Source: Bacillota bacterium (GTDB lineage: Bacteria > Bacillota > Clostridia > Christensenellales > UMGS416). Taken from it: 64,000 nucleotides of DNA. Below are positions 3,786 to 63,040 of the stretch, one piece after another (within the stretch, counting starts at the first letter, position 1; each line of letters opens with the position of its first letter). The position numbers and the translations under genes are program-made. Under the pieces are notes generated by a model. It did no database searches and was not told the DNA's origin. It saw only the letters and a program-made list of their open reading frames with translations. The DNA is taken from assembly GCA_023421955.1 (NCBI GenBank), contig JAEZSE010000001.1, positions 13,110 through 77,109 on the forward strand, in the 5' to 3' direction.

Positions 3786-4409
3786 TTACTGCTCCTTTTT
3801 GTGTACAATGTTCTCAACTGTCACTTTTTCAACATTACAGTATTTTTCAAACATATCGTTCGTAATGTTATAATCACCGATCATGACGCTTACCAATGTA
3901 TCATTGTCCAAGAACAAGATAAGCGAGAACCCGAGGTCTATATGTGTTGCATCCAGATATATATACTCCCGGTTATTCATAGAAATCTTTTCTGCATATT
4001 CATACTTCGTTGAGAGGTTTGCTTTCACCTCATCATCCAGCGTATGAGTGTTTGAGAAGTGCTTATGAATTGTACTGAACCATACTTCGGTATCTTCAGG
4101 GGTCGTATATCTCCACGTGTAGCCGTATGGTTCCAGTTGAATGGATTTGAATGACAATTCTTTCGGTAAATTTACCGGGCGCAAATAGAAGTCTGGAAGC
4201 GCATAGTCCATTTTGGCGATCCCGCCATGCGGATCAGCATAGGCTTGAACAAATTCATCCTCTGAACCATAAATAAAGACTTCATCGACAAATACCTGTG
4301 ACGGAGGATTTGGCAGACGAGCAGTCTCCAAAACTTGTTCGTTAGTCGAACAGGCTGACAAATGCAACATCAAATGGCCGCACAGAAGCACCAATATCAG
4401 CTTTCTCAT
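3786..4409 (-). CDS. Hypothetical lipoprotein (AT-rich islet)
   Basis: Signal peptide with lipobox LSAC. No recognisable domain. Composition is visibly more AT-rich than the flanks. Confidence 0.6.
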   Translation of the reverse strand: MRKLILVLLCGHLMLHLSACSTNEQVLETARLPNPPSQVFVDEVFIYGSEDEFVQAYADPHGGIAKMDYALPDFYLRPVNLPKELSFKSIQLEPYGYTWRYTTPEDTEVWFSTIHKHFSNTHTLDDEVKANLSTKYEYAEKISMNNREYIYLDATHIDLGFSLILFLDNDTLVSVMIGDYNITNDMFEKYCNVEKVTVENIVHKKEQ

Positions 4410-4600
4410 ATATGCTCCTTTAGGCTTGAGCCGCTAGGTTGGTATTATGACCCAAACAAAATATTACTCTTTCACTGACTAGATGGACAGCGCAAGTTTT
4501 GTCGAAAAACCTGTGGTGTGAGTTGGTTCACACTGTGCTAGAATATCAACACATAGAATTTGTGTTTATTCATTAATAAATTGTTCCTTGGTGGTTCTAC

Positions 4601-4792
4601 ATGGACAACACAAAACGTAGCAACATCCAAATCGGCGCCAATGTACGTGTGGTGCAAAAGCACCACCAACGCACCGGCGAACTCACCGAAGGCATCGTGA
4701 TGCGGATCCTCACCAACTCTCCTAATCATCCCCACGGCATCAAAGTGATGCTGGAAAGCGGCATTGTGGGCAGGGTGAAGGAAATTCTGTGA
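4601..4792 (+). CDS. YwbE-family small protein (TIGR03833/DUF2196-like)
   Basis: 63 aa. RTGELTEGIVMRILTNSPNHPHGIKVMLESGIVGRVKEI matches the YwbE family pattern. Confidence 0.75.
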   Translation: MDNTKRSNIQIGANVRVVQKHHQRTGELTEGIVMRILTNSPNHPHGIKVMLESGIVGRVKEIL

Positions 4793-4898
4793 TTTGCCGG
4801 TCATCCTTGGAGCTTTAGGTATTTCATGTTTTTCACTCTGTTCGCGTTGACATTGCGGGGATATCTTGTAGAATTTACGTTGTTCAAATGCATTTATC

Positions 4899-7187
4899 AT
4901 GAACTTATTCCCGAAGATACAGGAGACCCCCATGAACCTCCGTCAATGGCTTGCCCACTTCCAGGACAACCCCGCCACAGCCCGCAACATCGCCTATTGG
5001 CATGTGCAGGACAGCCGGCCTGCCGTTTTCGAGCCATTCCCTGAATGGCTGGACGACCGCATTGCGTCCGCGCTTAAAAAGCGCCAGATCTGGCATCTCT
5101 ACAGCCACCAGCGGCAGGCGGTGGACCTGGCCCACGACGGGCGACACGTCACCGTAGTCACACCCACCGCGTCGGGCAAAACGTTGTGCTACAACCTTCC
5201 GGTGCTCAATCGAATTGTGGAAGACCCCACGGCGAGGGCGATCTATCTGTTTCCGACCAAGGCATTGTCTGCTGATCAGGTGAGCGAGCTCTATGAGCTG
5301 ATCCAGGCCGCCGAGGTGGATGTGAAAACCTACACCTACGACGGCGACACGCCCCCGGCCGCCCGCAAGGCTGTGCGGCAGGCCGGTCACATCGTGGTGA
5401 CCAACCCCGACATGCTACACAGCGGTATCCTACCCCACCACACCAAGTGGGTGAAGTTGTTTGAAAACTTGAAATATGTCGTGATCGACGAGGTGCATAG
5501 CTACCGCGGTGTGTTCGGCAGCCATTTGGCCAACGTGATCCGAAGGTTGAAGCGCCTGTGTGCGTTTTACGGCTCCAACCCCCAGTTCATCTGCTGTTCC
5601 GCCACGATTGCCAACCCCCGGGAGCTGGCTGAACAGGTCACCGGTGTGCCCATGGCGCTGGTGAATCAAAACGGTGCGCCGCAGGGGGAGAAGCACTTTA
5701 TATTCTACAATCCGCCTGTGGTCAATGAGCAATTGGGCATCCGCGCAAGCTCCCTGCAGGAGAGCAAGAAGATCGCCACTGACCTTGTGATCAACGGCAT
5801 CCCCACGATCGTGTTCTCCCGCGCGCGCGTCACGATGGAGGTGTTGGTGTCGGCACTAAAAACTGCTGTGAAAGATGTGCTGGGTGACTCGGGCTTGGTG
5901 CGCGGCTATCGCGGCGGATACTTGCCCAGCGAACGCAGGGCCATCGAAAAGGGCCTGCGGGAGGGCAGTGTGCGGGCCGTCGTGAGCACCAACGCGCTGG
6001 AACTGGGCATCGACATCGGTAGCCTGGACGCCTGCGTCTTGAACGGCTACCCCGGCACCATCGCCAGCACCTGGCAGCAGAGCGGCCGGGCGGGGCGGCG
6101 GCAGGGGGTGGCTGCCACGGTCTTCGTGGCCAACTCCAGCCCCATCAACCAATTCATGATGAAGCACCCGGAATACTTTTTAAACCAGCCGCCGGAAAAC
6201 GGCCTGGTGAATCCCGACAACCTCTACATCCTGTTGAGCCACGTGAAGTGTGCGGCCTTCGAGCTGCCCTTTCACGATGGCGACGGCTACGGCGGCAAGG
6301 GCATCTCTGAGGTGCTGAAGTTCCTCGAGGATGCCGGCATCCTCCGGCATGTGGGCGGCGTGTGGCACTGGGCGGCAGAGGAATTCCCGGCCTCCGATGT
6401 GAGCCTCCGCAGCGCCAGCAACGAAAACTTCATCATCATCGATACCACCAGCGGCACCCACCGCGTGATTGGCGAGATGGACCGGTTCGCCGCGCCCATG
6501 CTGCTGCACGACGAGGCGATCTACATCCACGAGGGCCAGCAGTTCCAGGTGGAGAAACTGGACTTTCCCAACAAGAAGGCCTATGTGAAGTCGGTGGATG
6601 TGGATTACTACACCGATGCTGACCTGGCAGTGAGCCTCCGTGTTTTGGACTGCTTTGCCAATGAGCAGCGGCGGATCAGCGGCAAGGGTTGGGGCGAGGC
6701 GCTGGTAACAAGCCTTGTCACGATGTTCAAGAAGATGCACCTGGAGACCCATGAAAGCATCGGCTGGGGCCGCGTGCACCTGCCGGAGTTGGAGATGCAC
6801 ACCACGGCCTATTGGATGAGCTTTGACGAGGGCTTTTTCCGCAGTTATGGTTCCGACGCATTGGAAGGCGGCTTGATGGGCATCGCCAACCTGGTCTCCA
6901 ACATCGCGCCGGTCTATCTGATGTGCGACCCCAAGGACATCTCGGTGTTTCCGCAAGCCAAGAGTCCATATACACAGAATCCGACGATCTTCATCTACGA
7001 CACGATCCCCGGCGGCATGGGGCTTTCTGAGAAGCTTTATGACCTGCACAACACGGTGCTGGAGCAAAGCCTCAAGATGGTGAAGGAATGCCCCTGCCCG
7101 TCGGGCTGCCCAAGCTGCGTGGGGCCCGATGGAGTGGATAAGCGCATGGTAATTGGGCTGCTGGAGGCGATCTGCGGGGATTCTTGA
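4899..7187 (+). CDS. DEAD/DEAH-box helicase with C-terminal DUF1998/MZB zinc domain (YprA/MrfA-like)
   Basis: Walker A TPTASGKT, DEVH box (VVIDEVHSYRG), helicase C motifs (QQSGRAGRR). C-terminal CPCPSGCPSCVGP four-Cys motif. Confidence 0.85.
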   Translation: MNLFPKIQETPMNLRQWLAHFQDNPATARNIAYWHVQDSRPAVFEPFPEWLDDRIASALKKRQIWHLYSHQRQAVDLAHDGRHVTVVTPTASGKTLCYNLPVLNRIVEDPTARAIYLFPTKALSADQVSELYELIQAAEVDVKTYTYDGDTPPAARKAVRQAGHIVVTNPDMLHSGILPHHTKWVKLFENLKYVVIDEVHSYRGVFGSHLANVIRRLKRLCAFYGSNPQFICCSATIANPRELAEQVTGVPMALVNQNGAPQGEKHFIFYNPPVVNEQLGIRASSLQESKKIATDLVINGIPTIVFSRARVTMEVLVSALKTAVKDVLGDSGLVRGYRGGYLPSERRAIEKGLREGSVRAVVSTNALELGIDIGSLDACVLNGYPGTIASTWQQSGRAGRRQGVAATVFVANSSPINQFMMKHPEYFLNQPPENGLVNPDNLYILLSHVKCAAFELPFHDGDGYGGKGISEVLKFLEDAGILRHVGGVWHWAAEEFPASDVSLRSASNENFIIIDTTSGTHRVIGEMDRFAAPMLLHDEAIYIHEGQQFQVEKLDFPNKKAYVKSVDVDYYTDADLAVSLRVLDCFANEQRRISGKGWGEALVTSLVTMFKKMHLETHESIGWGRVHLPELEMHTTAYWMSFDEGFFRSYGSDALEGGLMGIANLVSNIAPVYLMCDPKDISVFPQAKSPYTQNPTIFIYDTIPGGMGLSEKLYDLHNTVLEQSLKMVKECPCPSGCPSCVGPDGVDKRMVIGLLEAICGDS

Positions 7188-7190
7188 AGT

Positions 7191-8417
7191 TCAACGAACC
7201 TTTGTGTTCACGAGCATCACTGCGCCACTGGCAAATGCCACCGGCACAGTGATCAGAAACGCGGTTGTCCACCCCAATGCTTCAGCCACTCCACCCAATA
7301 GCAACGGCCCCAACGCCAACCCGATGTTCTGGCCCAGGATCAGGATTCCCATCGCAGACCCGCTCTGCTCTGGTGAGCCTGCCGCCTCACTGGCAGCCGC
7401 AAATGCGCAGACCGGCAGCACTGGAGGGACTATTCCCAGAATTACAACATACGGCAAAAACCACTGAGTTGGAATGAAGGGTATCAAGGCAAAGCTTGCT
7501 GCGCTGATGACCATGCTTGCGGCACCCAAAACTCGCCTTGAACCGGTGCGGTCGGATAAAAGACCAGACAGTAGAGACGACACGATGGCGGCGAGACAAC
7601 AGATGCTTGTGAGGCTGGCGGCATCAGCCAAAGCCATGCCCCTGTTTTTGACCAGATAGGTTGGCAGGAATGTTTGTATGCTCACATAACTAATGACATA
7701 AAGCCCGATGGCGGCTGAAAGCAGCCAGATTGTTTTGCTGGCCATGACAGAACCTGATGGGGAAGACAAAGTCATTGGCTTCTGTTCAGTGCTATTCTTC
7801 TTGCTTTCCAACCGGGCCATCAGAATCAACCATATCATCAGGAAAAGCATTGTATAAGCTGATGCCAACCACCAGACCGATTGCCATCCCCCCAGGACTA
7901 AAACGCGCGGCGCCAGGTTATATGTGATTACTTGCCCGATGCCCATATAGCAGGCGAACAGGCCCATTGCCAAGCCACGGGACTTCGGATTGGCGGCCAC
8001 TGAGACAATTGATGGACCGGCGATGGCGACCAGTGCCATGCCTGCGCCTTCCACAACCCTGCTGAGCACCAACAATGCGAAGCTCGTGGTAAGTGCTCCG
8101 GCCACAGATCCTGCCAGCAGGAGCACAAGAGCTGCCAGCACGCATTGCCATGGGCCGAACTTGCGGATCAACATGCCGCCGGGCAGCGCCAGTGCGATGC
8201 CCGTAAGCGGAAGCACAGATATCAATAGGCTCAGTTGCGTTTCACCGATTTTTAAGGTTTCCATTAGGTATGGAGCGATGGCAGAAACCTTATTCAGATG
8301 AAGTGGTGCTGCAACCGCAGTCAGCAAAAGGATACTCATGATTATGGCGGGGGAAACGATAGGCTTTTTTGCTCGAACTGAATGCATGGTTTCATTTCCT
8401 GATTCCCGGTTTAGCAA
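7191..8417 (-). CDS. MFS transporter
   Basis: About 12 hydrophobic segments and MFS-like loops. Tail-to-tail with the helicase, 3 nt apart. The true start may be the internal Met (MHSVRAKK). Confidence 0.75.
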   Translation of the reverse strand: MLNRESGNETMHSVRAKKPIVSPAIIMSILLLTAVAAPLHLNKVSAIAPYLMETLKIGETQLSLLISVLPLTGIALALPGGMLIRKFGPWQCVLAALVLLLAGSVAGALTTSFALLVLSRVVEGAGMALVAIAGPSIVSVAANPKSRGLAMGLFACYMGIGQVITYNLAPRVLVLGGWQSVWWLASAYTMLFLMIWLILMARLESKKNSTEQKPMTLSSPSGSVMASKTIWLLSAAIGLYVISYVSIQTFLPTYLVKNRGMALADAASLTSICCLAAIVSSLLSGLLSDRTGSRRVLGAASMVISAASFALIPFIPTQWFLPYVVILGIVPPVLPVCAFAAASEAAGSPEQSGSAMGILILGQNIGLALGPLLLGGVAEALGWTTAFLITVPVAFASGAVMLVNTKVR

Positions 8418-9741: not shown

Positions 9742-11757
9742 TTACAAGGCACTCGTACAGCTAAAATCCAGCCGGACGCTCTCAAACGCTTCCAGTACAT
9801 CGATGCGGACAGTTGCAACGCCGTTCTCCTGTGTGAAGGGGCATTCCTTGCCGCTTACAAGGCTTGCTGCGCGCAGGATGGGCTTGGCACACGGCACTTT
9901 TATGGTGATGTCACGGACTGGCACAGGCTTCAGATAAGAGGTGCCAAAATGGCCTGTGCCATTCACCAGCTGCACCAGGGCATGCCCGCCGCTCGCGCTG
10001 ATGCCAAAGGTGACTTCAACCATGCCGGTGAGGCCCTCGGCCACGCTGGAAAGCCCTGCTATTGATGTCAGCACATCTTTCAGAAGCAGATAGGTATTGC
10101 TGTAACCCTCGCGGAAGTAGAGCTCTCCAGCCTTCCAGGGCAGGGTGACGCACTTGCCTGCTCCAAACCCATTGGCCACGATGCCGGGGTGCTCTGTGAC
10201 CGTGGTGTGGTAGCAGCGTTCCGGTGGGCCGAACATCTGCGGTGCAATCATTTGCAGGTGCCTCTCCGCGCCATCGGAATACTCGTTGTACCAGTAGCTA
10301 TCGCCGAAGAAAACCACGCTCGTTTCATTCAATGAGGGGAGGAGATTCACCTCTGCGTCACCGATCCGGAACATAGCGGAAACCATATCGTCCCGCCGGA
10401 TCACTTGTTGGCGCACACCTGCGCACGTAAGCGGGTTGCCTGCATAGGGCTCAAACTCTTCATCATATTTCAAGCTGTCACCGGAACAGATCAAGCAGCC
10501 GCCGTTTTTCACATAGCAGTCCAGCTTTTCTGTCAGTGCCTTGGGCACCACCTCAACGCCGCCCAGGATGATGGCCTTGTATTTGCCAAGGTCGCCACGC
10601 AGGGCGCTGTCAGCCTCCGCTTCGTCAAACAGGATGTGGCTTTCCGTCAAAGCCCTCATCCAGCCGAACTCCTCCGGAGAGCGGGCCCACTTGTGTGTGC
10701 GGATCACCAGTGCGTCGGCCACCGATTGCATGCCCAGGTAGCTCTGTTCATTCTCCGCGGCAAACCGGAAGACCTCTTTGATCGGCCCGTATCCGGAGCG
10801 GTCCAGCTTGTTGTCCAACCTTCCAATCAGGTAGTAATCGATGCCGCCCAGGTTTGCCAGGTCCTGCCAGAGCCGCAGTTGCTGGAGCTCCGGGTTCACC
10901 GCTACATGCCGGTAATAGAACCCAATGAAGTCCACGGTCGTGTTGCTTGCCGGTACCGCTCCGTCCACGCCCCGGATGCAGCGTGTGTTGGAGGAGGCGC
11001 TGTATTGCCACGACGGTAGCGCTCGGCCATACTCCGTGTTGGATTCCATCCGGTGGAAGTCGATGCCTTCGATCATGATCTGGGGGTTGATCCCGTGCAC
11101 CAGCTCCTCCAGCTGCCGTTTCTGGTCTGCAAGGACGCGGCGTTGAAAGGCGCGGTAGGCCCGAAAGGTGGGGTCCTCCATCTTGGTCGTGGAGGGCAGG
11201 TCCTTGTCGTACTGCTCTTTGAACTTCCGTTTGCAGCTGTCGCAATGGCAGATGCCGTATTGGCGATAGCTGTAGTCCTGCACTTGGAAGCCGCCCATGT
11301 TGATAAACAAGCCGTCGATCGGCAGTGTCTCGCAGACCTCCCGGATGATTCTCAGCGCATAATCCTGTTGGTATCCGCCATTGACGCAGGCGTGCACATC
11401 GCCGTTGTAGTCCACGATGTCGCCGGCTGCGGTGCGGTAGGCCCAACCGGGGTTCTGTTCATAGAAGGGGCGGCGGATCTTGGAAAAATCGGTACGGGCA
11501 AGCACCCGGATGCCGCTTTTATGGCAGAGCCCCATTACTTTCTCCAGGCTGTCGCCTTTCAGATATGGGCTTTGGAAGTGATAAGGCAGTTTGGTCGGAT
11601 AGCTGGCGATGATGCCGGCGGTGTTGATCAGCACCATCGTCGCGCCAAAGTCTTTGAGCTGCCGCACATATTCCTCGGCATCCATATCCAGCATGTCAAT
11701 TTCGCGCAGATTGGTCTGTATCAACCGCCAGGGGGTGTTATGCCACCAATGGTCCAT
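9742..11757 (-). CDS. Putative glycoside hydrolase-like protein (GHL6 / GH42-like TIM barrel plus trimerisation-type domain)
   Basis: N-terminus WWHNTPWRLIQTNLREIDMLDMDAEEYVRQLKDFGATMVLINTAGIIASYPT resembles the hypothetical glycosyl hydrolase 6 family. No signal peptide. Confidence 0.55.
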   Translation of the reverse strand: MDHWWHNTPWRLIQTNLREIDMLDMDAEEYVRQLKDFGATMVLINTAGIIASYPTKLPYHFQSPYLKGDSLEKVMGLCHKSGIRVLARTDFSKIRRPFYEQNPGWAYRTAAGDIVDYNGDVHACVNGGYQQDYALRIIREVCETLPIDGLFINMGGFQVQDYSYRQYGICHCDSCKRKFKEQYDKDLPSTTKMEDPTFRAYRAFQRRVLADQKRQLEELVHGINPQIMIEGIDFHRMESNTEYGRALPSWQYSASSNTRCIRGVDGAVPASNTTVDFIGFYYRHVAVNPELQQLRLWQDLANLGGIDYYLIGRLDNKLDRSGYGPIKEVFRFAAENEQSYLGMQSVADALVIRTHKWARSPEEFGWMRALTESHILFDEAEADSALRGDLGKYKAIILGGVEVVPKALTEKLDCYVKNGGCLICSGDSLKYDEEFEPYAGNPLTCAGVRQQVIRRDDMVSAMFRIGDAEVNLLPSLNETSVVFFGDSYWYNEYSDGAERHLQMIAPQMFGPPERCYHTTVTEHPGIVANGFGAGKCVTLPWKAGELYFREGYSNTYLLLKDVLTSIAGLSSVAEGLTGMVEVTFGISASGGHALVQLVNGTGHFGTSYLKPVPVRDITIKVPCAKPILRAASLVSGKECPFTQENGVATVRIDVLEAFESVRLDFSCTSAL

Positions 11758-11903: not shown

Positions 11904-12806
11904 TCAACCTTGCTTGTAGCGTCTGAGCTTCAATGCCGATAGCGCCAGGAACACCACTGCCGTGCCCGCCAATACAATGAGCATGGTGGGCACTGTGATC
12001 ACCGAATCACCCCAGTAGAGCTGAATGCCATACATCCTGGAATAGTCCGCGATTGCTGTAGCCTGGGCATGGGCTGGCACACTGGAGAACACTTCCTTCA
12101 ATGGCTGCTCGCAGAAGATTTGCCGCAGCAGCGCCGCGCTGTGGCTGAAAGGCACCACGTTCACAATCTTCTGCACGAAGGAGGGCAGGATGCCCAGCGG
12201 CACATACACACCAGTGATGAAGCCGATCATTGTGCCCAACAGCGTACTCAGTGTACCAAATGCCGAGCCTGATTTCAGAAATGAAGCCAGCAAAAACATC
12301 GTCGAGGATGACGTGATCACAGACAACACCATCACACCAAACGCCTCAAGCAGCTTCTCTGGCTGCAGGAGATGGCCCCCTCCGGAGAGGATATACAGCT
12401 CGCTCAGCACGAAGGCGATCAAGCTGAACACCAGTGTGATGATCCAGGTGGCGATCAGGTAACTAAGCACCACGGCCGTGCGGCTTGCCGGTGCCACGAT
12501 GAAGTCTGGAAAGCGTTTGTCCTCAATGTCAAACACCATTGTGCCCAGCGCACCAAGGGAAAGCGTGACCGCGTTGATGGCCAGCAACCCTGACATGATC
12601 CACGTGTCCACCAGGTATCGGGCGCTTTCGGTGACCAAGCCATATTGCTTCATCATGCCCTCAATGTTATCCACCTGCACCTTGCCCAAAAAGAGTGCGT
12701 ACAAGCCAATGATGATGATGACGGACAGGAAGGAGAAGAACACGGACATACGGTTGCGTGTATACACCAGGATGTTGCGCTGCGTTAATTTCCAGATCAT
12801 GCTCAT
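11904..12806 (-). CDS. ABC-2 type transporter permease
   Basis: Six hydrophobic segments. 4-nt overlap with the upstream ATPase gene. Confidence 0.75.
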   Translation of the reverse strand: MSMIWKLTQRNILVYTRNRMSVFFSFLSVIIIIGLYALFLGKVQVDNIEGMMKQYGLVTESARYLVDTWIMSGLLAINAVTLSLGALGTMVFDIEDKRFPDFIVAPASRTAVVLSYLIATWIITLVFSLIAFVLSELYILSGGGHLLQPEKLLEAFGVMVLSVITSSSTMFLLASFLKSGSAFGTLSTLLGTMIGFITGVYVPLGILPSFVQKIVNVVPFSHSAALLRQIFCEQPLKEVFSSVPAHAQATAIADYSRMYGIQLYWGDSVITVPTMLIVLAGTAVVFLALSALKLRRYKQG

Positions 12807-19519: not shown

Positions 19520-19546
19520 GTAGGGGCGGGGTTCCAACCCCGCCCC
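19520..19546. repeat. REP-like hairpin (GTAG head plus GGGGCGGGG/CCCCGCCCC) between convergent genes
   Basis: GTAG-GGGCGGGG-ttccaa-CCCCGCCCC. May also act as a bidirectional terminator, though it has no T-run. Confidence 0.6.
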
Positions 19547-19641
19547 GTATTTGACTGGATAGATTGTGGGTTTATTTATAGATCCAGATGTCCTAGCGGG
19601 CATATGCATACGCCCCTGCATTACCCACTCAAGTTGATTTC

Positions 19642-27864: not shown

Positions 27865-28075
27865 ACTCCAAGTGCCAGTTGTTTCATATCATCTTTCCAT
27901 AATAACTCTATAATCCTTCAAGTGTAGAAAGTGATAGTCTTCTGTTCATTTTAGTTCATGGTCAACAAAATGTCCAACACATATGTCAATCTCACACAGA
28001 TATTTGCATTCCCCTCCATTTTCCTGTATCATTAATCAGTTAAACTCTATCTCCCTTTTGAAAGGAAGAAACCGC

Positions 28076-29878
28076 ATGCCCCGCAGGCAGGACTATATTA
28101 GGAACTTTTGCATCATCGCCCACATCGACCACGGTAAGTCCACGCTGGCCGACCGCCTGTTGGAACTCACCGGCGTGGTGGCCCAGCGCGACCTGGAGGA
28201 GCAGATGCTCGACACGATGGACCTGGAGCGTGAGCGTGGCATCACGATCAAGGCCCAGGCCGTGCGCATGCCCTATGTGGCGCTGGACGGGCAGGAATAT
28301 GAACTGAACCTGATCGACACCCCTGGACACGTGGACTTCAGCTATGAGGTGAGCCGGTCGCTGGCAGCCTGCGAGGGCGCGATCCTTGTGGTGGATGCCA
28401 CGCAAGGCATCGAGGCGCAGACGCTGGCCAACGTGTATCTGGCGCTGGACCACAACCTGGAGATCATCCCGGTGATCAACAAGATCGACCTGCCCAGCGC
28501 CGATGTGGAGGCTGTGCGCAAGGAGATTGAAGACATCATCGGCCTGGATGCAAAGGATGCCCCGGCGGTCTCCGCCAAGGAGGGCATCAACATCCGCGCC
28601 ATCCTGGAGCAGGTGGTCAAGCTGGTGCCGCCGCCCAAGGGCAGTGAGGATGACACGCTGCGGGCATTGATCTTTGACTCGTATTATGACAACTACAAAG
28701 GTGCCATCAGTTTCGTTCGCATCGTGGAGGGCAGCGTGGTGCCCGGCGACCGCATCCGCATGATGGCGACCGGTTCGGAGTTTGAGGTCACTGAGGTGGG
28801 CATGTTCCGACCCCGCCTCACACCTACCGGCGGCCTCTATGCCGGCGAGGTGGGCTATATCTGCGCCAGCATCAAGAACGTGGCCGAAACCCGCGTGGGC
28901 GACACGATCACCAACGCGTCCTCTCCGGCTTCCGAGCCCCTGCCAGGCTATAAGGAAGCCATCCCGATGGTGTTTTGCGGCATCTATCCGGCCGACGGCG
29001 CCCATTATGAGGATGTGCGCGACGCGCTGGAGAAGCTGAAACTCAATGACGCCGCGTTTCAGTTTGAGCCTGAGACGTCGGTGGCGCTGGGCTTTGGGTT
29101 CCGCTGCGGCTTTTTGGGCCTTCTGCACATGGAGATCATCCAGCAGCGCCTGGAGCGGGAGTTTGACCTGGACCTGGTCACTACCGCCCCCAACGTGGTC
29201 TACAAGGTGGTGCTCAACGACGGCACGGTGCTGATGATCGACAACCCCAGCAAGCTGCCCAATCCCACCGACATCGAGCACATGGAGGAACCGATGACCT
29301 CGGCCCACATCATCACGCCGGTGGAGTATGTAGGCGCCATCATGGGCCTGTGCCAGGACAAGCGGGGCATCTTCGGCGAGATGAAGTATCTGGAAGCCAC
29401 CCGCGTGCAGTTGAGTTACAAGCTGCCGCTCAACGAGATCATCTACGACTTCTTTGACGCGTTGAAGTCCCGCACGAAGGGTTATGCTTCTTTCGATTAT
29501 GAGGTGACCGGCTATGAGCCCAGCGAGCTTGTGAAGCTGGACATCCTGCTGAACGCCGAGATCTGCGACGCGCTGTCGCTGATCACCCACAAGGAAAAGG
29601 CCTATGCCCGTGGCCGGGCGATGTGCGAGAAGCTGAAGGAAGCGATCCCGAGGCAGATGTTTGAGATCCCGATCCAGGCGGCCATCGGTGGCAAGATCAT
29701 CGCCCGCGAGACGGTGAGCGCCTTCCGCAAAGACGTGTTGGCCAAATGTTACGGCGGCGACATCACCCGCAAGAAGAAGCTGTTGGAAAAACAGAAGGAA
29801 GGAAAGAAGCGCATGCGCCAGGTGGGCAGCGTGCAGGTGCCCAGCGAGGCGTTTATGTCGGTTCTGAAGCTGGATTGA
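28076..29878 (+). CDS. lepA: Elongation factor 4
   Basis: [34 protein letters not shown]. Start set at MPRRQDY after AAAGGAAG. Confidence 0.95.
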
Positions 29879-31152
29879 TGGCAGGACTCTATATCCACAT
29901 CCCCTTTTGCGTGAGAAAATGCGCCTACTGCGACTTCCCCTCCGTGGCTGGAAGGGAAGAGGACGCGGGGCGCTTTTTTGCTGCGGTGGTGAGGGAGGCG
30001 GAGCTTTGGTGGGATGATTGCGTCGGTGGAGGGATTGGGCGGGTACCGAGCCCCGCCCGTACATCGACAGCATGTTCAATCGATTCCCTACCCTCCCTTA
30101 ATAAGGGGGGATGCCGCCTCAGCGGCAGGGGGGATTTCACTGGGATGTCACCAACAGTGACAGGGGGAGTCCATAAGAGAGTTTTCTCCACCGTCTTCCT
30201 TGGCGGCGGCACTCCCTCCCTCCTTCCAGCTGGCGATCTGGAGCGGCTCATGGACAGCCTGCGCTTGGTGCTGGACATCTGCCCCATTGAGTTCACCGTG
30301 GAGGTAAACCCCGGCACCGTAGACAAGGCGAAGCTCGAATCCTTTCGCCGCATGGGGGCCAACCGCATTTCCTTTGGCGTGCAGGCGGCGCAAGACGGCC
30401 TGCTCAAGCGCATCGGGCGCATCCACACATGGGCTGACTTTGTTCGATCTTTCGAGCTGGCCCGTGAGGCCGGATTCACCAACATCAATGCCGACATGAT
30501 GACCGGCCTGCCCGGCCAGACCGTGACTGACGCGGTGGATACTGCCCGCAGGCTGGTTGCGCTGGGAGTGGAGCATGTGTCCTGTTATGGGCTCATCCTG
30601 GAGGAAGGCACACCGATGTTTGCTGCTGTGGAATCCGGCGCGCTCACCGTGCCTGATGGTGATCTGGAGCGGGAGATGTTCCACGAGGCGAAGCAGGTTC
30701 TTGAAGCGGTGGGGATCAAGCGCTACGAGATTTCCAACTTCGCAAAGCCAGGCATGGAGTGCCTGCACAACCTCACTTACTGGCGAAATGAGGATTGGCT
30801 GGGGTTAGGCCCCGGCGCCGCGTCACACTTTGACGGCGTCCGCTGGGAAAACTACCCCGATCTGGATAGCTATATGCTAGCGTTGGAGCAGGGCGCGTTG
30901 CCCCCTGCTGACACCCATGAGATTGGCGGCAAGGAGACGGCTTTTGAATCAGTGATGCTGGGCTTGCGGCTGGTGGAAGGCATCGACTTGAAGCGCTTTG
31001 CAGCCCGCCATGGGTTCTCGTTCCTGGAGCGGTTTGGTGCGGTTATGGATAAACAGGTTGAATTGGGCCTGATGCAGAAAACCCCGCGCGCAGTCAGTCT
31101 GACCGAGCGGGGGATGGATTTGCAGAACTCTGTATTGATGGAGTTCATGTAG
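29878..31152 (+). CDS. hemW: Radical SAM heme chaperone HemW (HemN-like) carrying a ~55-aa in-frame insertion
   Basis: LYIHIPFCVRKCAYCDF, FLGGGTPSLL, HNLTYW. TGATG overlap with the lepA stop. Confidence 0.85.
   Translation: MAGLYIHIPFCVRKCAYCDFPSVAGREEDAGRFFAAVVREAELWWDDCVGGGIGRVPSPARTSTACSIDSLPSLNKGGCRLSGRGDFTGMSPTVTGGVHKRVFSTVFLGGGTPSLLPAGDLERLMDSLRLVLDICPIEFTVEVNPGTVDKAKLESFRRMGANRISFGVQAAQDGLLKRIGRIHTWADFVRSFELAREAGFTNINADMMTGLPGQTVTDAVDTARRLVALGVEHVSCYGLILEEGTPMFAAVESGALTVPDGDLEREMFHEAKQVLEAVGIKRYEISNFAKPGMECLHNLTYWRNEDWLGLGPGAASHFDGVRWENYPDLDSYMLALEQGALPPADTHEIGGKETAFESVMLGLRLVEGIDLKRFAARHGFSFLERFGAVMDKQVELGLMQKTPRAVSLTERGMDLQNSVLMEFM
30014..30180 (+). repeat. GC-rich modular palindromic element inserted in frame within hemW
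   Basis: Contains a REP-like hairpin (30037..30058) followed by TACATCGAC, box CCCTCCCTTAATAAGGGGGGATG..CAGGGGGGATTTC (30091..30138), and GGGATGTCACcaacaGTGACAGGGGGAGT (30142..30170). All three recur at other loci. Confidence 0.8.
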
Positions 31153-31214
31153 CATTTTATCATGTATTTGTCTATAATTCTTATCAGACTATAAAGCAAT
31201 GATGAGGTGTTGAA

Positions 31215-31646
31215 ATGAGTATATTTGATCATCTCCAAAGATCAAAATCTAGGCAGTTGAATGACAAATACATTCTGGATGTGTTGAAAGCAAAATGCGG
31301 TAATTGTGTAACTGAACAGGTCTTTTCAATACGGATTGAGAGAAAGTGGCTTGCAAGGTACTATATACCGATACTTCCGAACACGAGATATTTCTATCTT
31401 ATATGCAATGATTGTCAGTGTCAAACCGAGATTTCCAAGAATGTTGTTAAGAGGTTAAAGAAATTCAAGCAGTGTACAACACTGCTGCTGGAACACAAGA
31501 TATCAGACGAGGAATACCATGCTGCATTGATTCAACATGGCGTTTTTCCTGATGAGTTCATCCCAAACAATGATTGGGAGTGCCCGAAGTGCAAAAGAGC
31601 AAATAGCGGCATCACATATCGTTGTAAATGCGGATATGGTGTTTAG
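31215..31646 (+). CDS. Hypothetical Cys-rich protein with C-terminal RanBP2-like zinc finger (AT-rich islet)
   Basis: CGNC...CNDCQC...WECPKCKRANSGITYRCKCG. Confidence 0.5.
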   Translation: MSIFDHLQRSKSRQLNDKYILDVLKAKCGNCVTEQVFSIRIERKWLARYYIPILPNTRYFYLICNDCQCQTEISKNVVKRLKKFKQCTTLLLEHKISDEEYHAALIQHGVFPDEFIPNNDWECPKCKRANSGITYRCKCGYGV

Positions 31647-31675
31647 TTTGAGGCCTTAGCAGTTTGGATCTTTCT

Positions 31676-31894
31676 TTACGGTGTGCAAACCGTCAGATCC
31701 CTGTATTGCGCAAGAGGGCATGCCCCCAGTGTTGCTGCTGGCTCTACGATGTCGCCGATTGGCTGCAACGCCTGTATGGAATCCGTTGTTGCGGTGTTTG
31801 ACCCAGCAATGGGTTCCGCTGCTGTTTCCTTTGGCAAGCCGCAGGCAGTAAATAGCACTGAAATCGTAAAGAACAGAATCATCATTTTTTTCAT
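31676..31894 (-). CDS. Small hypothetical lipoprotein
   Basis: MKKMMILFFTISVLFTAC lipobox. GGGAGG RBS. Start set at the internal Met of track ORF 31676..31942. Confidence 0.5.
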   Translation of the reverse strand: MKKMMILFFTISVLFTACGLPKETAAEPIAGSNTATTDSIQALQPIGDIVEPAATLGACPLAQYRDLTVCTP

Positions 31895-31986
31895 GGGGTT
31901 TACCTCCCGATACAGATTGATCTTACCATCTGCTTGGCACATACATCGTGATCATTTACACATTAACCGGGGGCACAATCCTTCTA

Positions 31987-32679
31987 TTACCTCGAACTTT
32001 GAGACAAATCACCTTCATTGCTGTACCCATTGCTCTCCCAGTATCCCTTGTAGTTTGTGTCATCTGAAAGCTCAATGCGGCTGACCCATCGTGCCCATTT
32101 GTAGCCCCATTTATCTTCCGCCACAAAGATGAAGGGGTAGCCCATCTCCGGCGGCAGCGCGATGTCGTTGGCGGCGTAGGCAATCATCAGGTTCTTTTCG
32201 AGGATTTCCTGCAGCGGTAGCGAGGTGGTATAGCCGTCCACAGCATGGAAGATCACGGTTTTGGCCTCTGGCTGCACGTTTGCCGCGTCCAGCAGCGCCT
32301 TCATTGTGACACCTTTCCACAGGATTGTCGCATCCCAGCCTTCCACACAATACAGAGTGATCAGCCGCTCCTCGCTTGGCAAGGCCTTGACTTCGTCATA
32401 GGTGTATTGTTTGGGGGTGTTCACCAAACCATCCACAGTTAGTCGATATGTAGTGATATCCACCCTTTGGGTGCCTTTGATCGAGTTGTCTCGAGGGCCC
32501 ACAGCGGGGTCGAGCTTCCTGCCGTTGTATTCCCGAAGTTCGCCTTCGCGGTAGCGCTTCATTGTGGCGGTGGACACGGTATCGGGTGCGGGGGAACCGG
32601 CCATTCCAGAAGGCTTCGGGGCAGCACAGGCAGCGAGGATGAGAATGGGTAACAGACAAAGTGCAAGTATTTTTTTCAA
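31987..32679 (-). CDS. Molybdopterin-dependent oxidoreductase-fold lipoprotein (sulfite oxidase/MsrP-like catalytic domain)
   Basis: ITLYCVEGWDATILWKGV and DGYTTSLPL, typical of the oxidoreductase molybdopterin-binding domain. Lipobox LAAC. A TTG start after GAGGAGG is inferred. Confidence 0.7.
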   Translation of the reverse strand: MKKILALCLLPILILAACAAPKPSGMAGSPAPDTVSTATMKRYREGELREYNGRKLDPAVGPRDNSIKGTQRVDITTYRLTVDGLVNTPKQYTYDEVKALPSEERLITLYCVEGWDATILWKGVTMKALLDAANVQPEAKTVIFHAVDGYTTSLPLQEILEKNLMIAYAANDIALPPEMGYPFIFVAEDKWGYKWARWVSRIELSDDTNYKGYWESNGYSNEGDLSQSSR

Positions 32680-32805
32680 GAGGTGCTCCTCCTCAATGCT
32701 GGATTGAGTCAACTATAGTATAGGCAGAATCAGATCGAATGAATGTGATAATGCGCACAACAAATCCGAGAGATTGGCACCACCGGAAGATGACGGACAA
32801 TGCAC

Positions 32806-33070
32806 GGGCGGACTCTGTACCGGCCCGAGACTGTAAGCAACGCAGGCAAGCAAGGCCGAAAACCACATCTTGACATTCTGTGTGCAGGCTGATTGCCTGA
32901 TCGAGCCCGCCGAATGCATAAAAGGGCGCAGGGCGAAGCCCTGTATACACCCCCCTCCCCCATAAGGAGTGCGATAGTGGCCAATAGTCTGATGGGGGAG
33001 GGGTAGAGGTGGGGGGTCACAGGATAATAGAAAGGGGTCGGTACAGAGCCCGACCCCTACCATAGACATC
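32806..33070. repeat. Cluster of repeat-family modules in a 390-bp non-coding gap
   Basis: Degenerate REP-like copy at 32806..32826 in inverted orientation. 11-bp long-range stem CCCCTCCCCCA (32952..32962) with TGGGGGAGGGG (32993..33003). Intact REP-like hairpin GGGGTCGG-tacagagc-CCGACCCC plus CTAC at 33034..33060. Confidence 0.7.
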
Positions 33071-35422: not shown

Positions 35423-36664
35423 TTATACAACCGAAGTTTGTTCCTTGTCAAACCTAAAGTAGTACCCTTTTGCTTCATTGGCAAGGCGCAACCCCCGTGC
35501 TTCCACCGTTTCGCGGATTGCGGGCAGAGTGGTTTCTGTGGCAGTGGTGATCAGCTGCCCATCTCCCGGCAGCAAGGCGCACAGCTCGCCATACAGACCG
35601 GAGATGTCAGCGAATCCATCGGTTGCACTTTCCACAACTATGAGATCATAGGGGCCTGGAAACTGATCACTGATGCTTTGATATGGCCCATACATGGATT
35701 TGCGGCAGACGGTGGCCAGGTCCGCAAGGGTGTGCGGCGCATCGGCCAAATAGTCGATTGCCACGTCCTCCACACCAATGCGGCGATACATGTTTTTGAT
35801 CTGCAGCAGCGTGGATCCGCAGGAGCCGCCCAGACCTAAAATGCTCACCGGGCCCTGGCGCTTGTACCAGTGCAGGTTGACCACATCCATGTCAATATGA
35901 GCCGCTGCCCAGGAGTCCACGCCGAACTTTTTGATAAACAAGGTTCGATTGCGCTGGGGTAGGTTGTTTTTTTCGTATTCGGCGTTGAAGGTTACCGAGC
36001 CATAATGGTGCACGTAGGTGTCGCCTGCCAGGATGAGCCGCCAGCCCATTCGCCGCAGCTTGAAGCTGATGGCGTCATCGTCGTAGGCACCGGGGTTGAA
36101 ATCCTCGTCAAACCACCCGGCATCAGCAATGGCCTTGGCGCGGAAAAGGCAGGTGTAGGTGACCAGCTTCATCCGGTCTTCCCAGAGCCTTGGGTTGCTT
36201 CGATTGCGGCGATCGGCCAGTGCGTGCAGTTGCTCAAGAGTTTCATAGGGCAGATTCACCTGTTGGCGGTTGGAGGAGAACCCGCACACCGGTACGGCCA
36301 TGGCAATTCTCTCATCCGATTCCATAACGGTGACCAGGTTTTTCAGCCAATGGTCGGTTGCCACGATGTCGTTGCTCAGGTTCAGCACGTATTTGCCCTC
36401 GCCCAGTTGCAGCCCCCGGTTGATGGCCCGGTCCACGCCGATGTTTTCCTCAAACCGCAGCTTCTTTTTGTGGGGCAGGCTGTCGAAGTATTCGGCTGTG
36501 CCGTCGGTGGAGCCGTTGTCCACGGTGATCAGCTCATAATCCACGCCGTCGGTGTGTGCGATCAGGCTCTCGTAGCATTGTTTTGTGTAGTCCAGATGGT
36601 TGTAGGCCAGCAGCACCACGCTCACTTGTGGCTTATGCTCAGGCCTGGGTTCTGTCAGCAGCAT
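35423..36664 (-). CDS. Family-2 glycosyltransferase fused to a Rossmann methyltransferase-like C-terminal domain (paralogue A)
   Basis: VSVVLLAYNHLDYTKQCYESL..YELITVDNGSTDGT, a DED region, and C-terminal ILGLGGSCGST...YDLIVVE. Start set at the Met after GGAGGA. Confidence 0.75.
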   Translation of the reverse strand: MLLTEPRPEHKPQVSVVLLAYNHLDYTKQCYESLIAHTDGVDYELITVDNGSTDGTAEYFDSLPHKKKLRFEENIGVDRAINRGLQLGEGKYVLNLSNDIVATDHWLKNLVTVMESDERIAMAVPVCGFSSNRQQVNLPYETLEQLHALADRRNRSNPRLWEDRMKLVTYTCLFRAKAIADAGWFDEDFNPGAYDDDAISFKLRRMGWRLILAGDTYVHHYGSVTFNAEYEKNNLPQRNRTLFIKKFGVDSWAAAHIDMDVVNLHWYKRQGPVSILGLGGSCGSTLLQIKNMYRRIGVEDVAIDYLADAPHTLADLATVCRKSMYGPYQSISDQFPGPYDLIVVESATDGFADISGLYGELCALLPGDGQLITTATETTLPAIRETVEARGLRLANEAKGYYFRFDKEQTSVV

Positions 36665-38019: not shown

Positions 38020-38150
38020 GATTTTGGTAGGAGCGGGGCTCTGTACCCGCCCCATCTACTTGCCATTGACTCCTAACTTGCCGCCTGCGGGCGGGAAATC
38101 CCCCCTGACCTCTGCGGAGGTCATCCCCCCTTCATAAGGGAGGGTTTGGA
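38020..38150. repeat. Repeat-family element in the intercistronic gap of the sugar operon
   Basis: GTAG-GAGCGGGG-ctctgtac-CCGCCCC (38027..38054). The reverse complement of 38095..38144 aligns with 30091..30138, with compensatory changes in the central hairpin. Confidence 0.8.
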
Positions 38151-44735: not shown

Positions 44736-45983
44736 TCAGCTGCTTGCTGATTTTATAAAGCTCAGATAATAATGGTTGGCCTGTTTTCCAAACCTGGCCC
44801 CCAGGCCATAGAGCACTCCCATTGTTTCAAACAGGATGCCATCGTCCGCCGCTGTGCAGGCCAGCTGGCCGCCGGGGTTCAGCATGCCATACAACATATG
44901 GTAGAAGGCAGGGCGGTCTGAGATCAGCCGCGTGTCGGTCTCCAGTACAATGAAGTCAAACGACTGGCCGGCAAATTGCACAGCTGCATCCTCCGGCGCT
45001 CCTACTTCGCAGCGGTCGCAGATTGTTTTGAGATCGGCCATCTTACCGCGATCCGATGCCAGATAGGAAAGCGTCGCTTGTTTGCAGCCGAAGTACCGGC
45101 AGTTGTTCTTTACATGCAGCGCCGTGGAGCCATAGGATGAGCCGATTCCCAGAATGCTTGCGCTCTGCCCACCATCATAGGTGAGAGTATCCACCATCGT
45201 GCAGTCGATCAGGCCGGCCAAATAAGGGTCCGCGTTGAACTTCGACATGAACAGCCGCAGATTTCGGATTTGCAGGGTTTTGTCCTTTTCATATTCCGCG
45301 TTAAAGGATCGGGCCCCATAATGATGAACGAACGTGTCGCGGGCAAGAATGACCTTGTAGCCCATCCTTCGGATGGAAAAACAGATGGCGTCGTCATCAT
45401 AACAGCCGGGGTTGAAGTCCTCATCGAAGCCGCCTAGCGTTTGCATGATCTCATTGCGGTAAATGCCCAGGTAAGTGGATAGCTTCAGCCGCTCCTCCCA
45501 TTTGCCGGGGTCGCTCACATTGTGGCGTTCGGCATACCGCTGGATAGCCTCCATAGTGGTGCAGCCGATGTTGATTTGCTGGTAGTTGCAGGAGGCGTTG
45601 CACACCGGCACGGCCATGCCCACCCTTGGGTCTGTCTCCAGGATGGCTACCAGGTTGTCCAACCAACGGGCGGTCACCACGATATCGTTGCTCACGTTCA
45701 GCACGTATTTGCCGCGAGCCGCACGGATGCCATGGTTGATCGCCTTATCCACGCCGATATTTTGCGCAAAGCTGATATGCCGGGCTGCGGGCACGCTTTC
45801 CAGATATTCCTTTGTGCCGTCGGTAGAGCCGTTATCCACGGTGATCAGCTCATAATCCAGGTGCGCGGTGTGGCGAAGTATGCTCTCCACGCACTGGCGT
45901 GTGTAGTCCAGATGGTTATACGCCAGCACCACGATGCTGGTCAGCGGCTGCGTTCCACTTTCAGAAACAGAATCATTGTGCAT
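44736..45983 (-). CDS. Family-2 glycosyltransferase fused to a Rossmann methyltransferase-like C-terminal domain (paralogue B)
   Basis: SIVVLAYNHLDYTRQCVESIL..YELITVDNGSTDGT, C-terminal ILGIGSSYGST...FDFIVLE. Collinear with paralogue A along its whole length. Confidence 0.75.
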   Translation of the reverse strand: MHNDSVSESGTQPLTSIVVLAYNHLDYTRQCVESILRHTAHLDYELITVDNGSTDGTKEYLESVPAARHISFAQNIGVDKAINHGIRAARGKYVLNVSNDIVVTARWLDNLVAILETDPRVGMAVPVCNASCNYQQINIGCTTMEAIQRYAERHNVSDPGKWEERLKLSTYLGIYRNEIMQTLGGFDEDFNPGCYDDDAICFSIRRMGYKVILARDTFVHHYGARSFNAEYEKDKTLQIRNLRLFMSKFNADPYLAGLIDCTMVDTLTYDGGQSASILGIGSSYGSTALHVKNNCRYFGCKQATLSYLASDRGKMADLKTICDRCEVGAPEDAAVQFAGQSFDFIVLETDTRLISDRPAFYHMLYGMLNPGGQLACTAADDGILFETMGVLYGLGARFGKQANHYYLSFIKSASS

Positions 45984-46089: not shown

Positions 46090-48156
<2,067 letters not shown>

Positions 48157-62111: not shown

Positions 62112-62271
62112 CCGAAGGTAGTGTTCCAAGTAACAAGGGCCGCGATCATTCGCGGCCCCTTCAGCTATCCTCCCGGCGGTATCGCTCAACATGATCGAGC
62201 CACACTTGTCCCCCTCCTCTGAGGGGGATGTCACAAAGTGACAGGGGGAGTATGGTGACCAAGCGGTAGGA
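62112..62271. repeat. Repeat-family module cluster between convergent genes
   Basis: Hairpin GGGCCGCGA-tcat-TCGCGGCCC (62137..62158), box GCTATCCTCCCGGC, CCCCCTC-ctct-GAGGGGG, and GGGATGTCACaaaGTGACAGGGGGAGT (62225..62251), which is nearly identical to 30142..30170. Confidence 0.75.
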
Positions 62272-62869: not shown

Positions 62870-63040
62870 GCGCAAGTGTCCTTCACTGGGCGGCTCATGA
62901 GCCGCCCGCGTAGTTCAAGTAAGAAAAGTGGTGTGGTAAGGAGATCGGCCTGGTTTGGTTTGGCCAGACAGCCCGCAAATATGAGGAAGGGGCCGGTACA
63001 GAGCCCGGCCCCTACATCGACCGCCATATACTGGCACATC
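62870..63040. repeat. Repeat-family module cluster
   Basis: TTCACTGGG followed by the 20-nt perfect palindrome GGGCGGCTCATGAGCCGCCC (62888..62907). REP-like GGGGCCGG-tacagagc-CCGGCCCC with CTAC and ATCGAC...ATCGAT (62989..63040). Confidence 0.75.

Follow-up and report, generated by a model that had tools for sequence, protein, structure and literature searches.

How does a gene for a conserved protein come to hold a cluster of hairpin-forming repeats within its open reading frame (ORF)? This question is raised by hemW, encoding the radical S-adenosylmethionine (radical-SAM) heme chaperone HemW, in a 64,000-nt stretch of a Bacillota genome (contig JAEZSE010000001.1; hereafter, the window). An original prediction, made from the sequence alone, had described a repeat element inserted in frame in this gene, either tolerated as a surface loop or marking a gene on its way to becoming a pseudogene. 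Our follow-up makes it quite probable that the insert is a tolerated mosaic of two repeat families, A and E, kept in frame and predicted to be translated as a floppy loop.

The expanded linker of HemW and its repeat modules

The ATG of hemW (position 29878) overlaps the stop codon of lepA in the sequence TGATG. Sequence and translation are as first quoted, and the ORF (29878–31152) is open and in frame throughout. The product is identified as HemW by a score above the cut-off of TIGR00539, the NCBIfam HemW equivalog (281 bits; cut-off 205), by a CxxxCxxC motif followed by D-F (C11-x3-C15-x2-C18-D-F20) and by a HemN_C domain (PF06969), found together with PF04055. HemW proteins carry Phe in place of the fourth Cys of HemN. 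The insert breaks the TIGR00539 match into two stretches. The best match of the HemW model in the Protein Data Bank is HemN (1OLT; template modelling score 0.74). In an alignment of 62 HemW homologues, 51 columns are invariant, CxxxCxxC and GGGTP included, and all radical-SAM and HemW motifs are invariant, also in the carriers of an insert. An exact look-up of the window protein matched no record.

Between helix α1 and the GGGTP strand, the window protein has a linker of 60 aa, compared with 7–10 aa in 53 of the 62 aligned homologues, a net gain of ~50 aa. The predicted insertion is thus borne out, and its size is corrected from the ~55 residues first given. One unrelated homologue, P0067, has a 28-aa linker at the same position, and the site therefore tolerates extra length (L and P numbers denote the loci and proteins used for comparison).

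Two repeat families make up the insert. Alignment of 14 copies showed that the modules separated as B, C and D in the original prediction form one family, E, with two subtypes (B–C and D). Its members consist of a C-run/G-run hairpin, ATG, a second hairpin with a freely varying stem and (C)AGGGGG(G)A. In the hemW copy of subtype a, hairpin 1 reads CCCTCCCTT.AAT.AAGGGGGG and hairpin 2 reads CCGCC.TCA.GCGG. Family E is a repeat family without prior description and is absent from Rfam. Family A has a stem of 7–8 bp with variable middle positions, the loop TACNGAGC and a 3′ CTAC; on the opposite strand it reads GTAG, GGGNNGGG, GCTCTGTA and CCCNNCCC, with the GTAG tag adjoining a GC-rich palindrome. 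Base pairing is maintained in both families. In the A stem (8 bp, 8-nt loop), 94% of the alignment cells are paired and 13 cells are changed on both sides, with compensatory changes at two positions; none of 500 shuffles reached this covariation, and slid controls pair in 33–68%. Hairpin 2 of E shows changes on both sides in five of six pairs, again with 94% of the cells paired, and hairpin 1 varies mostly through G–U pairs.

The same modules recur elsewhere in the window. The A hairpin pattern matches at 30042, 33040, 38027 (minus strand) and 62995, the B–C pattern at 30091–30138 and 38095–38144 (minus strand), and the D pattern at 30142–30170 and 62225–62251. As no pattern found a match in 100 dinucleotide shuffles, the sharing of modules between hemW and intergenic DNA goes far beyond chance. 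ORF maps and the local sequence place every copy outside hemW between genes. The sharing first proposed for sites at 33.0, 38.1, 62.2 and 63.0 kb therefore stands, but not the presence of the full set at each of them: 33.0 and 63.0 kb hold only A, 38.0–38.1 kb holds A and B–C, and 62.2 kb holds only D. A doublet at 19520–19620 adds a second subtype, A2 (GTAGGGGCGGGGTTCCAACCCCGCCCC), which also lies inside the hemW genes of L006 and L007, and its inverted partner is a hairpin of a third kind (A3).

Only two of the six frames of the window insert are free of stops, the used frame and one antisense frame, and in the 273-nt insert of L006 the used frame is the only open one. Because most other frames contain stops, the open frame points to selection on HemW rather than to base composition. 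The predicted translation includes the peptides GRVPSPAR and LSGRGDFTGMSPTVTGGVHK.

As RNA, the 176-nt insert folds into four hairpins (−71.3 kcal/mol; z = −2.3 against shuffled sequences). Stable hairpins could stall ribosomes, and GC-rich hairpin elements are bypassed during translation in yeast mitochondria. It is nonetheless hardly credible that intron or intein removal, or ribosomal bypassing, keeps the segment out of the mature protein. At 150–170 nt (~50 aa) it is too short for a group I or group II intron or an intein. All eight full-length insert variants, including that of the window, keep the frame without stops although other frames contain them, which speaks against removal because removal would not require a kept frame. 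Searches of Rfam, introns included, gave no match at the gathering score over the whole window; between 29950 and 38200, with E values up to 5, they gave two matches, neither on a repeat copy nor near the gathering score. With no relevant match at either setting, a known RNA family or self-splicing intron was rejected. Compared by BLASTN with plasmids and phages, the insert had no match, and a full-text literature search for the hairpin sequences returned only unrelated matches to eukaryotic promoters or primers.

The same linker in related lineages

The nearest HemW proteins are 410, 393, 458, 402, 415 and 382 aa long, compared with ~375 aa for others, and all have extra residues at this linker. 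Different mosaics of A and E occupy it in L001, L003, L005, L006, L007, L008, L027 and L028 (Table 1), with every full-length one in frame. Our genome scan for close loci returned only one, in a metagenome-assembled genome labelled Bacillota bacterium OH_CBB_53. The E subtype b junction of the window gene (30142–30170) is also present in hemW of L003, and a 102-nt composite of A, linker and E is colinear in window hemW, L005 hemW and an intergenic site of L001. Relatives carry intergenic A or E copies as well, in L001 at 12031–12375, in L003 at 12067–12094 and in L006 at 8290, 12425 and 14943. Close orthologues carrying the segment in genomes free of the intergenic repeats would have spoken against the original prediction; L001, L003 and L006 have both. 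Orthologous sites can also differ: in the spacer that follows the aconitase-like gene, L001 has both A and E, but the window and L003 have only A. Modules thus come and go.

This recurrence bears on whether repeat-induced misjoining created an assembly chimera, which we consider next to impossible. In favour of a chimera, the elements are repetitive, and the contig of L028 breaks off within the insert. However, the same codon interval is occupied in eight other lineages from independent assemblies (ENA, JGI, NCBI and Logan), and both junctions are colinear with hemW, the right one being shared with L003.

Two inserts contain tandem duplications. In L006, positions 7031–7160 hold about four units of ~30 nt encoding TEQITGAG-like repeats; in L007, positions 7678–7740 hold three copies of a 21-nt unit encoding PYPPAAQ. 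Slippage thus adds to the variability of the loop. Repeat inserts also mislead gene callers and break assemblies: in L027, hemW (9773–10996) is called from an internal GTG, yielding the truncated P0013 without the Fe–S motif, and L028 meets its contig end within the insert (positions 1–60).

A second question is whether the insertion inactivated HemW, leaving a gene in decay. The insert adds 50 aa only ~25 residues past the Fe–S motif and adjoins the SAM-binding GGGTP strand, and gene callers truncated two orthologues, P0012 and P0013. The idea that these two are hemW genes broken by the insert was dismissed, since the L027 gene stays in frame when read from its true ATG and L028 is merely truncated by the end of its contig. 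Across insert-bearing lineages, the ratio of non-synonymous to synonymous divergence (dN/dS) of the HemW body is 0.13–0.20, with dS from 0.6 to >1, placing the body under purifying selection. Together with the invariant columns and a structural model that is confident outside the loop, this makes the decay of hemW into a pseudogene very unlikely, and the corresponding branch of the original prediction is disfavoured. Purifying selection, intact motifs and the confident model favour a tolerated loop, the other branch, which agrees also with the TIGR00539 score and the low model confidence within the insert.

That model was obtained with AlphaFold2 on the 62-sequence alignment and has a mean predicted local distance difference test score (pLDDT) of 89.4. 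Residues 54–99, between helix 27–49 and strand 103–110, score below 50, and the rest scores ~95 or higher. The insert is accordingly modelled as a disordered loop, and the remainder of HemW is predicted with confidence to be folded. In TIM-type radical-SAM barrels, the cluster and SAM are bound at one face and the α-to-β connections are found at the other; a disordered excursion at this linker would plausibly be harmless.

A neighbour-joining tree was built from the HemW body alone, excluding the insert and leaving out P0012 and P0013. All seven full-length insert-bearing proteins that were aligned group in one clade (77% support) with two insert-free members, L009 and P0009. P0008, the insert-free protein of L009, is sister to P0006, the insert-bearing protein of L007 (100% bootstrap; 81% aa identity). 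Either an old insertion was remodelled and lost twice, or the linker was colonised repeatedly; both histories fit the tree alike.

The insert itself evolves differently from the body. Between the window and L005, the A–linker–E composite aligns without gaps at 80% nucleotide identity. Its dN is 0.24 and its dS 0.20 (dN/dS ~1; 5, 8 and 7 differences at the three codon positions), whereas the flanks have a dS of 1.2, about six times higher. By manual count on the alignment, the spacer between the modules is ~50% identical, compared with near 90% for the hairpins and motifs. L006 and the window use different reading frames across the A module. With dN/dS ~1, an even spread over codon positions and this change of frame, the insert is unconstrained as a peptide. 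On these comparisons the segment appears to evolve at the level of DNA rather than as a protein domain; either constraint acts on the DNA or RNA, or conserved repeat copies renew it.

Constraint on the nucleic acid would turn the α1–β2 linker into a selected 'intergenic region inside a gene', in which REP and E hairpins are kept for their own function and the peptide is a by-product (REP, repetitive extragenic palindromic). Such a function could be that of an RNA stabiliser or attenuator that uncouples the expression of lepA and hemW and sets their ratio, or that of a protected landing pad for a hairpin-recognising enzyme of the HUH type. An RNA element within hemW is conceivable because the overlapping TGATG leaves no spacer between the two genes. 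The idea would explain the low dS of the insert beside a dN/dS of ~1, and the persistence, at one site in nine lineages, of hairpins whose identity changes, although the lineages are only ~70% identical. It would also fit the divergent spacer between conserved modules, the folding stability above that of shuffled sequences and the compensatory changes in hairpin 2 among copies read in the same frame (GCCGC/GCGGC in the window, GCCCCC/GGGGGC in L005 and GTCGC/GCGAC in L028). REPs have been reported mainly just downstream of ORFs, acting as RNA elements (PMC3733652). Against it, module content, order and orientation vary by lineage, with E inverted in L003 and L027; L009 and P0009 do without an insert; and L007 keeps one despite 108 nt between lepA and hemW. 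Reinsertion from conserved sources, or gene conversion, also gives low dS and seemingly compensatory differences. We consider a selected nucleic-acid function unlikely, though it is the alternative to which we give most weight.

Module A as a REP-like element and its possible link to a RAYT-family gene

Module A resembles a REP in its palindrome, its tag and its dispersal. REPs are imperfect palindromes of 20–40 nt that form a stem-loop, and A forms one with an 8-bp stem and an 8-nt loop. It also carries the GTAG tag beside the stem: CTAC follows the stem in three of the four A copies of the window, the hemW copy having the degenerate head GTAC. REP copies are typically dispersed, mostly intergenic and often arranged as inverted dimers; the 64 kb of the window hold three A copies and one A2/A3 doublet between genes, and additional copies are present in L001, L003 and L006. 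Scanning metagenome contigs with the A loop and 3′ stem yielded 16 loci, all of them with CTAC, which the search pattern imposes; the unconstrained 5′ bases complete a perfect hairpin in 16 of 16. At several of these loci an inverted partner lies 30–50 nt away, resembling the doublets known as REPINs.

One of the contigs offers a candidate for mobilisation. In L021, an A hairpin lies ~60 nt upstream of a gene for a 206-aa protein, and a second GTAG hairpin follows the gene. The protein matches the NCBIfam model REP_Tyr_transpos (NF047646) with E = 1.3e-15, at 57.5 bits and thus below the 80-bit equivalog cut-off; the Pfam model Y1_Tnp gave 16.7 bits, below its cut-off of 23. We accepted the gene as a member of the REP-associated tyrosine transposase (RAYT) family because of the NCBIfam match, a pairwise alignment to Escherichia coli RayT over the HUH and Tyr motifs, and thousands of homologues with PF01797, many of them named RayT. 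The whole unit (L021 4320–5066) is REPtron-like, with the gene (4364–4984, minus strand) lying between GTAGGGGCAGGCCCCCGTGCCTGCCC and the A hairpin.

Two further contigs show how widely the hairpins occur. L012, with a GC content of 0.29, carries the GC-rich hairpins GTAGGGGCGTATTGCATACGCCC and GTAGGGGCGGGGCTCTGTACCCGCCC in an AT-rich spacer beside a ribosomal-protein operon (1950–2040). Near-identical hairpins are present on contigs with GC contents from 0.29 to 0.64; as their presence on L012 shows, these hairpin sequences have been conserved in hosts that differ widely in base composition, an unusual trait for REPs. L019, a 1.6-kb metagenome contig, brings together A, a GGGCGTATGCAATACGCCCCTAC hairpin and several E elements (60–260 and 1270–1530), one E element having an extra hairpin nested in loop 1. 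Families A and E therefore co-occur outside the hemW clade loci.

Insertions of this kind have precedents. REPs tagged with GTAG or CGTC are mostly intergenic; the occasional intragenic ones occur singly or as dimers or clusters (Di Nocera et al. 2013, PMC3733652). Intragenic REPs encode 20–30 aa, reaching 43–82 aa in Thauera and R. conorii, and REPs are thought to be mobilised by RAYTs (PMC3733652). Like the hemW insert, intragenic REPs are short, GC-rich, GTAG-tagged palindromes, but the survey mentions neither Firmicutes nor the loop sequence of family A (PMC3733652). Unlike those surveyed, the hemW insert joins a REP to a hairpin family that is not a REP, and a single interval holds mosaics in at least nine lineages. 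REPIN/RAYT systems share with family A the GTAG head with a hairpin and the inverted doublets (19520–19620 in the window, 7158–7239 in L006, and in L013 and L016). REPINs have usually been portrayed as specific to a lineage and passed on vertically, which differs from the near identity of family A hairpins across that range of GC content.

Rickettsia palindromic elements (RPEs) resemble the insert as selfish palindromic repeats that lie in frame in conserved genes and are apparently tolerated. Ogata and colleagues reportedly described RPEs in conserved protein-coding genes in 2000, some of them at orthologous sites across species. RPEs come from another phylum with a different GC content, and the likeness is functional, with no claim of sequence membership; RPE-1 is a single unit of ~100–150 bp, whereas several independent modules are combined in the hemW insert. 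The comparison with RPEs that had been drawn from the window sequence thus holds for dispersed modules lying in frame in an intact HemW, but not for one recent, private event, since at least nine lineages, the window included, are involved. In E. coli, bacterial interspersed mosaic elements (BIMEs) are clusters of REPs and further short conserved motifs whose order and orientation vary. BIMEs are enterobacterial and lie outside genes, and the partner motif of the hemW insert, E, is itself a structured element of two hairpins. The kind of event is therefore already known, and what is unusual here is a long-lived hypervariable site. The host clade is an uncultured group of Bacillota, a second structured repeat family takes part, the insertions share one codon interval and synonymous divergence is low.

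History of the insert, neighbouring features and significance

A tolerated, in-frame mosaic could have arisen as follows. A and E elements would have entered the HemW linker in an ancestor of this Bacillota clade, probably mobilised as single-stranded DNA by a RAYT-type HUH transposase, without target duplication. The cluster would since have changed as more modules came in, some were inverted, tandem units slipped (L006, L007) and sequence was deleted (L008, and to completion in L009 and P0009), with selection on HemW purging every variant that broke the frame. Translation of the segment would yield a floppy loop on the side of the radical-SAM barrel that faces away from the Fe–S/SAM site, in a protein that still works.

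Several observations weigh against this account. Its historical part competes with repeated colonisation of a hot spot, which fits as well as one old insertion with turnover. Plain neutral decay of a translated loop leaves the low dS of the insert unexplained. The lineages were found mostly through protein databases, which favours intact genes. The insert boundaries are blurred, with no visible footprint or target duplication; by eye, comparison with the insert-free L009 defined neither a clean boundary nor a target-site duplication, and the exact limits hoped for from orthologue alignment did not emerge. The hemW copy of A reads GTAC instead of GTAG. Neither the window nor ~110 kb of clade loci gave a credible RAYT match in tblastn searches with E. 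coli RayT and the L021 protein, and the suggested link between A and a transposase, drawn from one unrelated contig, is indirect for the window genome. Translation of the insert, finally, is a prediction from sequence.

Table 1 Positions and composition of the genes, repeat modules and hemW inserts (window coordinates unless a locus is named)
Feature	Position	Strand	Description
lepA (elongation factor 4)	28076..29878	+	ORF; orthologous lepA–hemW pairs with Pfam LepA_C
hemW, radical-SAM heme chaperone	29878..31152	+	424 aa, intact; TIGR00539, PF04055, PF06969, 1OLT
Expanded α1–β2 linker, residues 45–104	30010..30189	+	Insert and remodelled remains of the original ~10-aa linker
Module A, REP-like hairpin	30036..30073	+	TGGGCGGG / loop TACCGAGC / CCCGCCCG, then TAC, tail ATCGACAGCAT
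Module E subtype a (originally B and C)	30083..30138	+	TTCCCTAC, hairpin 1, ATG, hairpin 2, CAGGGGGGATTTC
Module E subtype b, 5′-truncated (originally D)	30142..30170	+	GGGATG, hairpin TCAC.CAACA.GTGA, then CAGGGGGAGT
Intergenic REP doublet	19520..19620	+	Between convergent genes; first arm GTAGGGGCGGGGTTCCAACCCCGCCCC (A2), second an inverted hairpin GGGCATATGCATACGCCCCTGC
Intergenic A	33034..33060	+	GGGGTCGG TACAGAGC CCGACCCC TAC; downstream of aconitase-like gene
Intergenic A	38027..38054	-	~10 nt upstream of the ribosome-binding site of a gene starting at ~38017 (minus strand)
Intergenic E subtype a	38095..38144	-	Order E then A, opposite to the order in hemW
Intergenic E subtype b, full length	62208..62251	+	Between convergent genes
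Intergenic A	62988..63015	+	A pattern match; tail TACATCGACCGCCAT
L001 hemW insert			Degenerate E
L003 hemW insert			Inverted E and direct E; direct copy has the right junction of the window
L005 hemW insert			A–linker–E, colinear with window, same frame
L006 hemW insert			Tandem A fragments, A, then inverted A2, a REPIN-like doublet (7158–7239)
L007 hemW insert			A2, then 21-nt unit three times
L008 hemW insert			Short E-like remnant
L027 hemW insert			Inverted E and E-like unit; in frame from the true ATG
L028 hemW insert			Same E, same frame; contig starts inside the insert

The start of lepA in Table 1 was inferred from the conserved N-terminus inside a longer ORF (27983–29878). Some neighbouring features were recorded alongside. 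Between hemW and an Oxidored_molyb gene lies a low-GC island (31150–31990; GC 0.37–0.45 compared with 0.56 for the window) that holds a Cys-rich 143-aa ORF with CxxC pairs (31215–31646). It looks like a lineage-specific insertion because the corresponding gap in L003 is only ~40 nt. Upstream of the Oxidored_molyb-type gene (31987–32712, minus strand), the window (32900–33020) and L001 (12130–12260) share a conserved segment of ~120 nt with many C-runs and G-runs (CCCCCCTCCCCCATAAGGAG...GGGGGAGGGGTAGAGGTGGGGGG). It has no Rfam match with E values up to 5 and may represent a leader or regulatory RNA, or further remnants of repeats. Segments 36261–36622 and 45577–45938, 9316 nt apart and 74–77% identical, probably belong to paralogous genes. 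On the minus strand, positions 46090–48135 encode a 681-aa ORF with long collagen-like (Gly-Pro-Thr)n tracts, formed by 9-nt tandem repeats, and a non-repetitive C-terminal domain; we take it to resemble exosporium or BclA-type collagen-like proteins. Immediately upstream of lepA, L027 carries an RVT_1 reverse-transcriptase gene (517 aa; 6271–7824, minus strand) that may be a group II intron or retron-type element.

The hemW insert adds an uncultured Bacillota clade to the groups in which REP-like repeats have colonised essential-type genes in frame, and it documents a second structured repeat family, E, beside the REP-like one. It also provides at least nine natural alleles of one protein loop, each built from a different repeat mosaic. 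This series could be used to follow how new peptides arise from selfish hairpin DNA, how much insertion a radical-SAM barrel tolerates and whether intragenic hairpins affect mRNA.

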